Below are positions 9,347-9,416 of a DNA stretch of 64,000 nt, one piece after another; the first letter of the stretch is position 1, and the number at the start of each line of letters is the position of its first letter. Both the position numbers and the translations under genes were made by a program. This DNA is from an uncultured Gammaproteobacteria bacterium (GTDB taxonomy: Bacteria > Patescibacteriota > Microgenomatia > JAMCZE01): positions 681,795 to 745,794 of the forward strand of contig CAZXMM010000001.1 of assembly GCA_964641255.1 (NCBI GenBank). The letters run 5' to 3'. Below the pieces are notes generated by a model, which saw only the letters and a list, made by a program, of their open reading frames with translations, was not told the DNA's origin and did no database searches.

Positions 9347-9416
9347 GCCTAACGAAGCTATCGGGGCTTAGGTTTCTCTATTTTTCAAGAAGTAGATAAA
9401 CCCAAGCCCCGTTTTT
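9347..9416 (+). promoter_or_regulatory. Conserved phage leader element, copy 1 (22-nt motif, stem partner, T-run)
   Basis: GCCTAACGAAGCTATCGGGGCT at 9347..9368. CGGGGCTT at 9362..9369 can pair with AAGCCCCG at 9404..9411, followed by TTTTT. Lies 16 to 85 nt upstream of the portal ATG. A near-identical copy is at 31449. Confidence 0.4.

Follow-up and report, generated by a model that had tools for sequence, protein, structure and literature searches.

In bacteriophage lambda, the virion genes lie behind a host-type promoter, pR', which is followed immediately by an intrinsic terminator, tR', that the Q protein has to overcome. Q uses a DNA site and a sigma-dependent pause and acts processively, and there is one such leader per genome. 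In the RAT (ribonucleic antiterminator) elements of the BglG, SacY and LicT systems, and in T-box antiterminators, a weak, conserved, bulged hairpin overlaps the 5' arm of a stable terminator and needs a factor, while in ON-riboswitches (pbuE for adenine; thiS, in the terminator, for hydroxymethylpyrimidine pyrophosphate, HMP-PP) the 3' strand of the P1 helix is shared with the terminator and a variable, covarying hairpin is present. The lambda nutL/nutR sites (boxA plus boxB), putL/putR of phage HK022 and conAn2 of Gram-positive conjugative plasmids are leaders that act on termination, lie past promoters in two copies and work processively through RNA polymerase. To our knowledge, almost nothing is known of how phages of the Candidate Phyla Radiation (CPR) regulate their genes, none of these phages has been cultured, and full-text literature searches found no description of antitermination or structured RNAs in CPR phages. 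Here we describe a leader element, built around a conserved 22-nt motif, that occurs twice in a 64,000-nt stretch (hereafter, the window) of contig CAZXMM010000001.1, part of a Patescibacteria (CPR) chromosome carrying a prophage-like element. The element is best explained as the 5' leader of the two late (virion-assembly) transcription units of the prophage-like element, one starting with the portal gene and the other with the first head-module gene, and we hold with moderate confidence that it is a transcription attenuator, in which an antiterminator helix competes with a terminator, co-regulating the late operons.

The locus resembles lambda late control in having a host-type promoter ahead of virion genes and an immediate intrinsic terminator to be overcome, but here the terminator stem would face competition from an RNA helix, and each genome has two leaders instead of one. 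With RAT elements and T-boxes it has in common the weak, conserved, bulged hairpin overlapping the 5' arm of the terminator, but it shows no sequence similarity to the RAT systems, its terminator stems are far longer, and it belongs to a phage of CPR bacteria. The ON-riboswitch arrangement is also recognisable, although the short form of the element, found in the window, is a 21-nt hairpin without a conserved pocket. Like nut, put and conAn2, it is present in two copies past promoters; unlike them, it overlaps the terminator concerned. The leader lacks the combination of boxA with a boxB carrying a GNRA-like pentaloop that marks lambda N/nut sites; the boxB loop is conserved, whereas the loop here varies freely. 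Scans with Pfam and PHROGs covered the proteins of the window and of a related locus, L004 (L numbers denote individual loci), in which part of the phage genome is visible, and revealed neither a Q-family protein nor a CAT/PRD antiterminator. Rfam 15 at gathering thresholds matched only a tRNA in the window, and permissive scans of the short and long forms returned generic hairpin noise, mainly microRNA precursor models. Likenesses to guanidine-II (ACGR loop), K-turn and boxA motifs were rejected on what we take to be their defining features, the flanking or G-A pairs being absent.

The motif, GCCTAACGAARCWATCGGGGCT, matches exactly at two sites on the + strand, 9347-9368 (portal copy) and 31449-31470 (head-module copy), as a sequence-only reading of this DNA had stated, and both sites are backed by pattern match, structural alignment, covariation and folding. 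No further match with up to three mismatches was found on either strand of the window, where shuffled sequence gives an expectation of 0. A covariance model built from 39 short-form relatives recovered exactly the two + strand sites (85.9 and 77.5 bits) and did not turn up a third copy, be it in the window or in any of the loci. The portal copy runs into a hairpin at 9362-9411 (+ strand; ~21 bp, two one-base interruptions), the base of which is CGGGGC/GCCCCG and which has positions 9362-9368 in common with the motif; a T-run read from the sequence, TTTTTGTTG (9412-9420, + strand; 9412-9416 when drawn more narrowly), follows directly and is kept in all relatives. The head-module copy runs into a hairpin of 24-25 uninterrupted pairs, G-U pairs included (31465-31520, + strand), followed by the T-rich tract TCTTTTAGTT (31520-31529, + strand, or as far as 31525 when drawn more narrowly; from sequence and structural alignment), which is interrupted (TCTTTT after the hairpin) and hence weaker than the T-run of the portal copy. 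The portal leader (85 nt) folds with -31.5 kcal/mol (z = -5.5 against shuffled controls) and the head leader (92 nt) with -43.9 kcal/mol (z = -8.6); a simple terminator scan also flagged the head copy. The earlier reading had noted that a T-to-G change in one arm is compensated by an A-to-C change in the other, which is correct (GGGGCTT/AAGCCCC against GGGGCTG/CAGCCC), and that the two motifs lie at a similar distance from their genes, which is also borne out since the start codon follows exactly 20 nt past the hairpin in both copies (ATG at 9432 and 31541). Its shared AGAAGTWG block is indeed present, as AGAAGTAG at 9388-9395 and AGAAGTTG at 31506-31513, but the positions are not equivalent and the resemblance alone is not significant: the block lies in the apical 3' arm of the portal hairpin and in the middle 3' arm of the head hairpin, the two do not align structurally, and we rejected it as a common functional block.

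Loci around homologues of the portal protein were collected by exact-protein look-ups, from one genome per species (38 loci) and from IMG/VR (43 loci). Wherever the portal protein was at least about 45% identical and the locus reached far enough upstream, the portal gene was preceded by a related element. The protein-anchored loci yielded 62 distinct copies, to which scans with DNA patterns added dozens more. The carriers are assemblies of Woese-, Davies-, Gottesman-, Shapiro-, Roizman-, Doudna-, Moranii- and Nealsonbacteria and of Parcubacteria. In distant relatives (37-47% portal identity) the leader is absent; there the portal gene directly follows the terminase gene and the promoter is kept.

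Comparison of these copies strongly supports the earlier suggestion that the hairpin and T-run are built like an intrinsic terminator or attenuator close to a promoter, and the covariance modelling across related phages that it had called for found covariation both in this hairpin and in P1, the helix described below. Of the 20 consensus pairs of the terminator, nine show compensatory double changes, and G-U pairs are frequent; the base CGGGGC/GCCCCG followed by 5-7 U is found in nearly all 62 copies, and the stems, at 20-33 bp, are unusually long. The covariance model scored 86 bits on the + strand as compared to 38 bits on the - strand. The G-U pairs and this strand asymmetry indicate that the folding molecule is the + strand RNA. 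Both leaders lie in divergent intergenic regions, and hence neither hairpin can terminate an upstream gene.

These data bear on two other explanations. The motif could be a DNA-level site, such as a recombination or attachment repeat around cargo genes, an operator, or a packaging or replication signal, since direct repeats ~22 kb apart bracket the portal gene and a cargo island, and the cargo islands of relatives always lie just upstream of leader units. But L117 and L008, whose portal and head genes have no cargo between them, also keep two copies, the many G-U pairs would be A-C mismatches on the other strand, on which the model scores far lower, the compensatory changes keep RNA pairing, and the position between upstream promoters and downstream start codons is fixed; we regard a DNA site as highly improbable. 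Alternatively, the hairpin could be a stabiliser of the 5'-untranslated region or an RNase III processing signal, the T-run being incidental. The stems have the duplex length of an RNase III substrate (~20 bp, near-perfect; 20-25 bp where uninterrupted), the arm sequences are conserved beyond what a terminator alone would require, and phage T7 provides an established precedent. This explanation is doubtful, as the 5-7 U behind a G+C-rich base in nearly all 62 copies are not needed for processing and would terminate transcription anyway, and it leaves the covariation of the motif with the stem base unaccounted for. RNase III processing or mRNA stabilisation could nevertheless occur alongside attenuation.

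The attenuator reading is carried by a second helix, P1, in which motif bases 1-4 (RCCU) pair with GGGY at positions 18-21, while motif positions 16-22 double as the base of the terminator stem. In the portal copy, 9347-9350 (GCCU) pair with 9364-9367 (GGGC), 9351-9352 (AA) are bulged, and an inner stem is formed by 9353-9355 (CGA) and 9361-9363 (UCG) around a variable loop at 9356-9360. The free minimum-energy fold of the isolated portal 21-mer is exactly P1 plus the inner stem (-4.9 kcal/mol). The corresponding strands in the head copy are 31449-31452 with 31466-31469 and, for the inner stem, 31455-31457 with 31463-31465. Among the distinct rows of the alignment, pair 1-21 is G-C in 27 and A-U in 4, pair 2-20 is C-G in 29, U-A in 1 and U-G in 1, pair 3-19 is C-G in 30 and U-G in 1, and pair 4-18 is U-G in 30 and U-A in 1. 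Compensatory changes thus occur at pairs 1-21 and 2-20. None of the cells of the four outer pairs is unpaired, and the whole helix is 94.5% paired, as compared to 15-62% when the partners are slid against each other. The 3' arm of the terminator changes in parallel in the head copy of L004 and in L155 and L159 (position 21) and in L136 (position 20). This three-way covariation of RCCU, GGGY and the 3' arm points to two mutually exclusive helices. The element is thus a 5' leader with an alternative helix that shares bases with the terminator and is backed by covariation, though through few independent events. The loop follows the pattern ANNNW, its middle being free (AGCUA, AACAA, AUUUA, AUUGA and others); in the long forms of the element a hairpin of up to 8 bp takes its place, and the inner hairpin there has four covarying pairs.

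Covariation of RCCU with the terminator base indicates an RNA-level role for the 22-mer and points to competition between hairpins more than to processive control of the Q type. The antitermination-type late control proposed in the sequence-only reading is retained as a terminator/antiterminator design, with the Q-type processive mechanism less favoured. It seems to us possible but unlikely that the element is a site for processive antitermination like those of lambda nut/N, Q, HK022 put or conAn2. The 5' domain, once folded, would then load onto RNA polymerase, by itself or together with a phage protein, so that this and later terminators are resisted and overlap with the terminator is incidental. 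It would fit the two copies per genome just past strong promoters, as with nutL/nutR and putL/putR, and a conserved linear sequence with a small hairpin ahead of a terminator; P1 covariation tells us only that the 5' domain folds, and the identical 22-mer pairs of some genomes (L008, L117, L138, L150) are consistent with a shared trans-acting partner. The three-way covariation is, however, what direct competition predicts, the loop varies in sequence, the scanned proteins included nothing N-, Q- or LoaP-like, and no known family is matched in Rfam. Very long terminator stems have been found to resist at least one processive antitermination system, conAn (PMC10325885), and the extraordinarily long stems here therefore fit a hairpin-specific mechanism better.

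P1 domains have predicted energies of -2.7 to -15.9 kcal/mol and the terminators of -27.5 to -45.7 kcal/mol. When the two leaders of the window were folded stepwise, P1 had the lowest energy at every nascent length short of the final 6-8 nt of the 3' arm. In head-type leaders a further helix, P0, may extend the antiterminator: the RGAAG core of a conserved leader block, UUAGGAAGU (31437-31445, + strand; from nascent-chain folds and RNAalifold), can pair with ACUUCU (31474-31479) in the 5' arm of the terminator, and RNAalifold predicted P0, P1 and the inner hairpin from 14 head-type leaders with the 3' arm removed. The paired bases of P0 are invariant or vary only by wobble, giving no covariation support. 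Three other helices were considered and rejected. A GCCUAA/UUAGGU helix in portal-type leaders is broken by 5'-arm changes in L004, L058, L113, L114 and L133, for which the terminator compensates in its 3' arm; an 'anti-antiterminator' formed upstream by UUAGG/CCUAA in head-type leaders lacks conservation (L008, L117, L114); and a GCC/GGC mini-hairpin (positions 1-3 with 8-10), given by RNAalifold for long forms, is broken in L155 and L159 and impossible in short forms.

The sequence-only reading had likened the 22-mer to a phage-specific promoter. This part does not hold, since sigma-70-type promoters (TTGACA-like, 16-18-nt spacer, TAnnnT) sit upstream of it in relatives and in the head copy of the window. 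Promoters, which are consensus predictions throughout, match at least 9 of 12 sigma-70 positions in 35 of the 62 copies, with the -10 element ending 11-28 nt (median 20) before the motif, and many read TTGACA-N16-18-TAAAAT with an extended TG; in most lineages the promoter is close to the consensus and ends 17-28 nt ahead of the motif. The 22-mer would therefore be transcribed, at roughly +12 to +33 of the leader. In the window, the scan gave TTGAGA-17-TAGACT at 31401-31429 (+ strand) for the head-module leader, with similar promoters in relatives; its -10 ends 19 nt upstream of the motif. For the portal leader, the candidate is a weak -10, TACCCT (9323-9328, + strand), ending 18 nt before the motif where relatives have TAGAAT, TAGCAT or TATAGT; it is drawn from the sequence and the relatives, and its assignment is uncertain. 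A better pair of hexamers, TTTACT-16-TAGAAT (9227-9254), lies ~90 nt upstream and overlaps a divergent - strand promoter. The 22-mer as a promoter in its own right, including one for the phage sigma factor of L004, which resembles extracytoplasmic function (ECF) sigma factors, was rejected because it is too short for both a -35 and a -10 element and consensus promoters lie upstream; the ECF-like sigma gene is also missing from many element-carrying phages.

A promoter, a conserved 5' segment, a terminator hairpin and a U-tail are also the anatomy of an independent small-RNA gene, and transcripts of ~85-95 nt with the 5' 22-mer as a seed for distant targets would recall the established, constitutive 6S transcript from lambda pR'. 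We consider this very unlikely. The start codon comes 20 nt after the hairpin, too close to leave room for a promoter, so that the large, conserved downstream genes would have to be transcribed by reading through the terminator; moreover, no complementary target was found in the window, and the seed is partly base-paired in P1.

Two forms of the element were recognised. The short form, found in Microgenomates-type phages including that of the window, is RCCURACGA-ANNNW-UCGGGGYU followed by the hairpin and a U-run; each genome has two copies of it, one ahead of the portal gene and one ahead of the first head gene. The long form, found in Parcubacteria-type phages, is GCCUGACGGC-[stem-loop of up to 8 bp]-UAAACGAGA-CGGGGCU followed by a longer hairpin and a U-run, and is present as one copy ahead of a portal-head operon. 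Intermediates between the two occur in L137, L159, L165 and L136.

The riboswitch explanation has to be weighed against these forms. In this sub-case of the attenuator, P1 and P2 (the variable hairpin) would be an aptamer, which includes conserved internal-loop bases (GACGGC ... UAAACGAGA in the long form), and a small molecule would stabilise P1 and turn the late genes on. The layout is that of a classic ON-switch, the 3' strand of P1 being common to the terminator; the variable, covarying P2 is flanked by conserved unpaired bases; and no match to a known riboswitch class was found. Nevertheless, the short form of the window is a 21-nt hairpin with a 2-nt bulge and an unconserved 5-nt loop that lacks the junction bases of the long form, a ligand pocket common to both forms is hard to see, and phage late genes are atypical targets; a small-molecule riboswitch is thus given little weight. 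The broader idea that the P1-P2 leader is a new sensor RNA, either a small-ligand riboswitch or an RNA acting on RNA polymerase itself as put does, is likewise rather unlikely. If true, it would mean that CPR phages time their virion genes by the physiological state of the ultra-small, host-dependent cells that they infect, without a dedicated late-activator protein.

In addition to the two forms, several features of individual leaders were observed. In L008, L038/L150, L117 and L138, from Woese/Davies-type phages, a genome has the same 22-mer in both places, down to the otherwise free loop (TTTA or TTGA), and the two copies of L008 share an A5G change; in the lineage of the window the loops differ between the copies (GCTA/TCTA and ACAA). 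Judged from the sequences, the identical pairs suggest concerted evolution or gene conversion, or a shared partner. In the long-form leaders L119-L129 and L134, ~100 nt separate the element from the portal ATG (e.g. 9890-9985 in L120), and contain a UUCG-capped hairpin and then a second hairpin with a T-run ending just before the start codon, which may be a second control step. In L119, L121, L126, L128, L129 and L157, the terminator 3' arm GUCUCG is perfectly complementary to a junction CGAGAC and also, with two G-U pairs, to the adjoining CGGGGC, so that two registers of the terminator base are possible in this long-form subgroup.

Specificity was checked by searching IMG/VR and a metagenome collection with DNA patterns in place of the portal protein. 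These searches returned many chance matches without a hairpin and 83 elements with a hairpin and T-run. Portal homologues follow 35 of the latter and head-module genes 42, three are cut by contig ends, and three precede other open reading frames (ORFs). One of these last three is a G+C-rich chance match; the other two, in L185 (37-130) and L277, are bona fide head-type leaders ahead of an 81-82-aa gene, with no head genes there. Behind that gene, L185 has two small ORFs and the gene for a large serine recombinase, and the neighbouring tdk, rpoD and dnaG genes are those of the host; the L185 and L277 leaders may mark a prophage end or remnant. The motif was therefore not seen at many non-phage intergenic sites, either in these scans or in the window with its two copies, and the suggested phage specificity stands.

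The attenuator would work as follows. Judging from the consensus matches, a host-type sigma-70 promoter would start the transcript ~12-20 nt ahead of the 22-mer, which, on emerging, would fold first into P1, consisting of the RCCU-GGGY pairs, two bulged purines and the inner stem, whose top may be as small as a 5-nt loop or as large as a covarying hairpin of 8 bp; the upstream RGAAG of head-type leaders may lengthen P1 by pairing with CUUCU. The 20-33 bp hairpin ahead of the U-run uses the 3' strand of P1 as the G+C-rich base of its own 5' arm. By default, once the 3' arm emerges, the far more stable terminator would oust P1 and transcription would stop ~20 nt before the start codon. If P1 were held, the base of the terminator would not form beside the U-run, and RNA polymerase would read into the portal or head genes. 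With the same leader on both units, the portal gene and the head module would be switched together despite the 20 kb of cargo between them. P1 would most likely be held by a phage- or host-encoded RNA-binding factor, and less likely through a kinetic effect or by a small ligand; that the short form is no more than a bulged hairpin of 21 nt whose loop varies freely speaks for a protein. No leader peptide is present. The protein of the head module with a KH domain (36297-36617), an obvious choice as an RNA-binding protein, was considered as the effector and rejected, since it occurs in only 13 loci, some of which lack the element or its 5' strand.

Several points weigh against this reading. The transcription start, termination, read-through and effector are deduced, what was observed being conservation, position and the covariation of the hairpin and of P1. 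P1 is 20-40 kcal/mol weaker than the terminator, and hence an effector is required, yet no known antiterminator family was represented among the scanned proteins and the occurrence of the KH protein is not strictly tied to the element. The independent events in P1 are few (a single one at pair 2-20, ~2-3 at pair 1-21), no variation at all is seen at pairs 7-17 and 8-16, and RNAalifold alone does not predict P1 in the long form. The promoter of the portal copy in the window is poor, and the U-runs of some head copies are interrupted. In L118 (~9729-9834) and L163 (~9421-9520), a strong promoter and ACGGGGCU with the hairpin and T-run are kept, but the 5' GCCURACG strand with its RCCU is missing and the leader ahead of the hairpin is A/U-rich; by these two sequences, the antiterminator appears to be dispensable in some lineages.

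The phage genes of the window were described in the earlier reading as two phage blocks. Both are indeed phage modules, but they are the two modules of one prophage-like element, parted by a cargo island, so that the portal gene and the head module lie ~20 kb apart with cellular genes between them and the prophage is not contiguous. The portal gene (9432-11321, + strand, 629 aa) has a weak match to the Pfam family SU10_portal and 172 homologues that are 57-96% identical, all named ones being from Patescibacteria (Levy-, Woese- and Moraniibacteria, Paceibacterota and Parcubacteria). The head module spans 31541 to ~49000 and begins with a 132-aa gene of phrog_5707 (31541-31939, + strand); it includes an SU10-type major capsid gene (33451-34620), an adaptor gene (38238-38942) and tail-fibre genes. 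No GenBank phage showed DNA similarity, and the closest capsid proteins from cultured phages are at most 31% identical. In the lineage of the window, no terminase gene is visible within 9-10 kb upstream of the portal gene. Two genes are unusual passengers for a head module: the above-mentioned KH-domain gene, which encodes an RNA-binding protein of the KhpA/KhpB type (106 aa), and a gene adjoining the capsid gene whose product has a weak SAP/Rho_N-like N-terminal domain (34775-35395).

The cargo island (~20 kb, 11712-31324, - strand) encodes a peptidyl-prolyl isomerase (PPIase), three SPFH/Band7 proteins, a cation diffusion facilitator (CDF) transporter, three DsbA-like proteins, a NifS-like protein, a P-type ATPase, an ATP-binding cassette (ABC) transporter, DsbD with a cupredoxin, and BlaR1/M56-like and BlaI/CopY-like proteins; it looks like a set for envelope redox and metal (perhaps copper) homeostasis. 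The same spot holds genes for a response regulator, a P-type ATPase, a low-molecular-weight (LMW) phosphatase and PadR in L004 and for a 1404-aa HEAT protein in L001, and is empty of cargo in L117. An inverted repeat, CTACA-AAT-TGTAG (31330-31342), resembles a BlaI/MecI/CopY box (TACA..TGTA) and overlaps the predicted - strand promoter (TTGAAA-17-TACAAT) of the BlaI/CopY-like repressor gene (30944-31324); on sequence grounds, this suggests that the cargo operon is autoregulated. Directly upstream of the portal leader lie defence-like genes (1386-9017, - strand) for a protein with a DrmE C-terminal domain, a 1113-aa DEAD/Helicase_C protein, and a NERD and UvrD-like helicase; at this position L001 has genes for a methyltransferase, an SNF2/PLD helicase and a DUF4365 protein. 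At the other end, the phage-like block stops before the host gene for undecaprenyl-diphosphate synthase (50917-51627), which is followed by tRNA-Arg(TCT) (51678-51753) and tRNA-His (52034-52106), both found by ARAGORN; Rfam at its gathering threshold reported tRNA-His but not tRNA-Arg.

The element is a new family of leader RNAs of CPR phages, of a regulatory kind that is already known, and a candidate for an Rfam entry. It can also serve as a marker for this phage clade and for the starts of late operons in metagenomes. Because each module has its own promoter-leader unit, co-regulation would survive the separation of the modules, which would account for how large cargo and defence islands are tolerated in the virion-gene region. 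Most likely the leader switches the portal and head genes on and off, and it provides a concrete, widely conserved and experimentally tractable regulatory RNA, in two structural forms, for the late genes of CPR phages.

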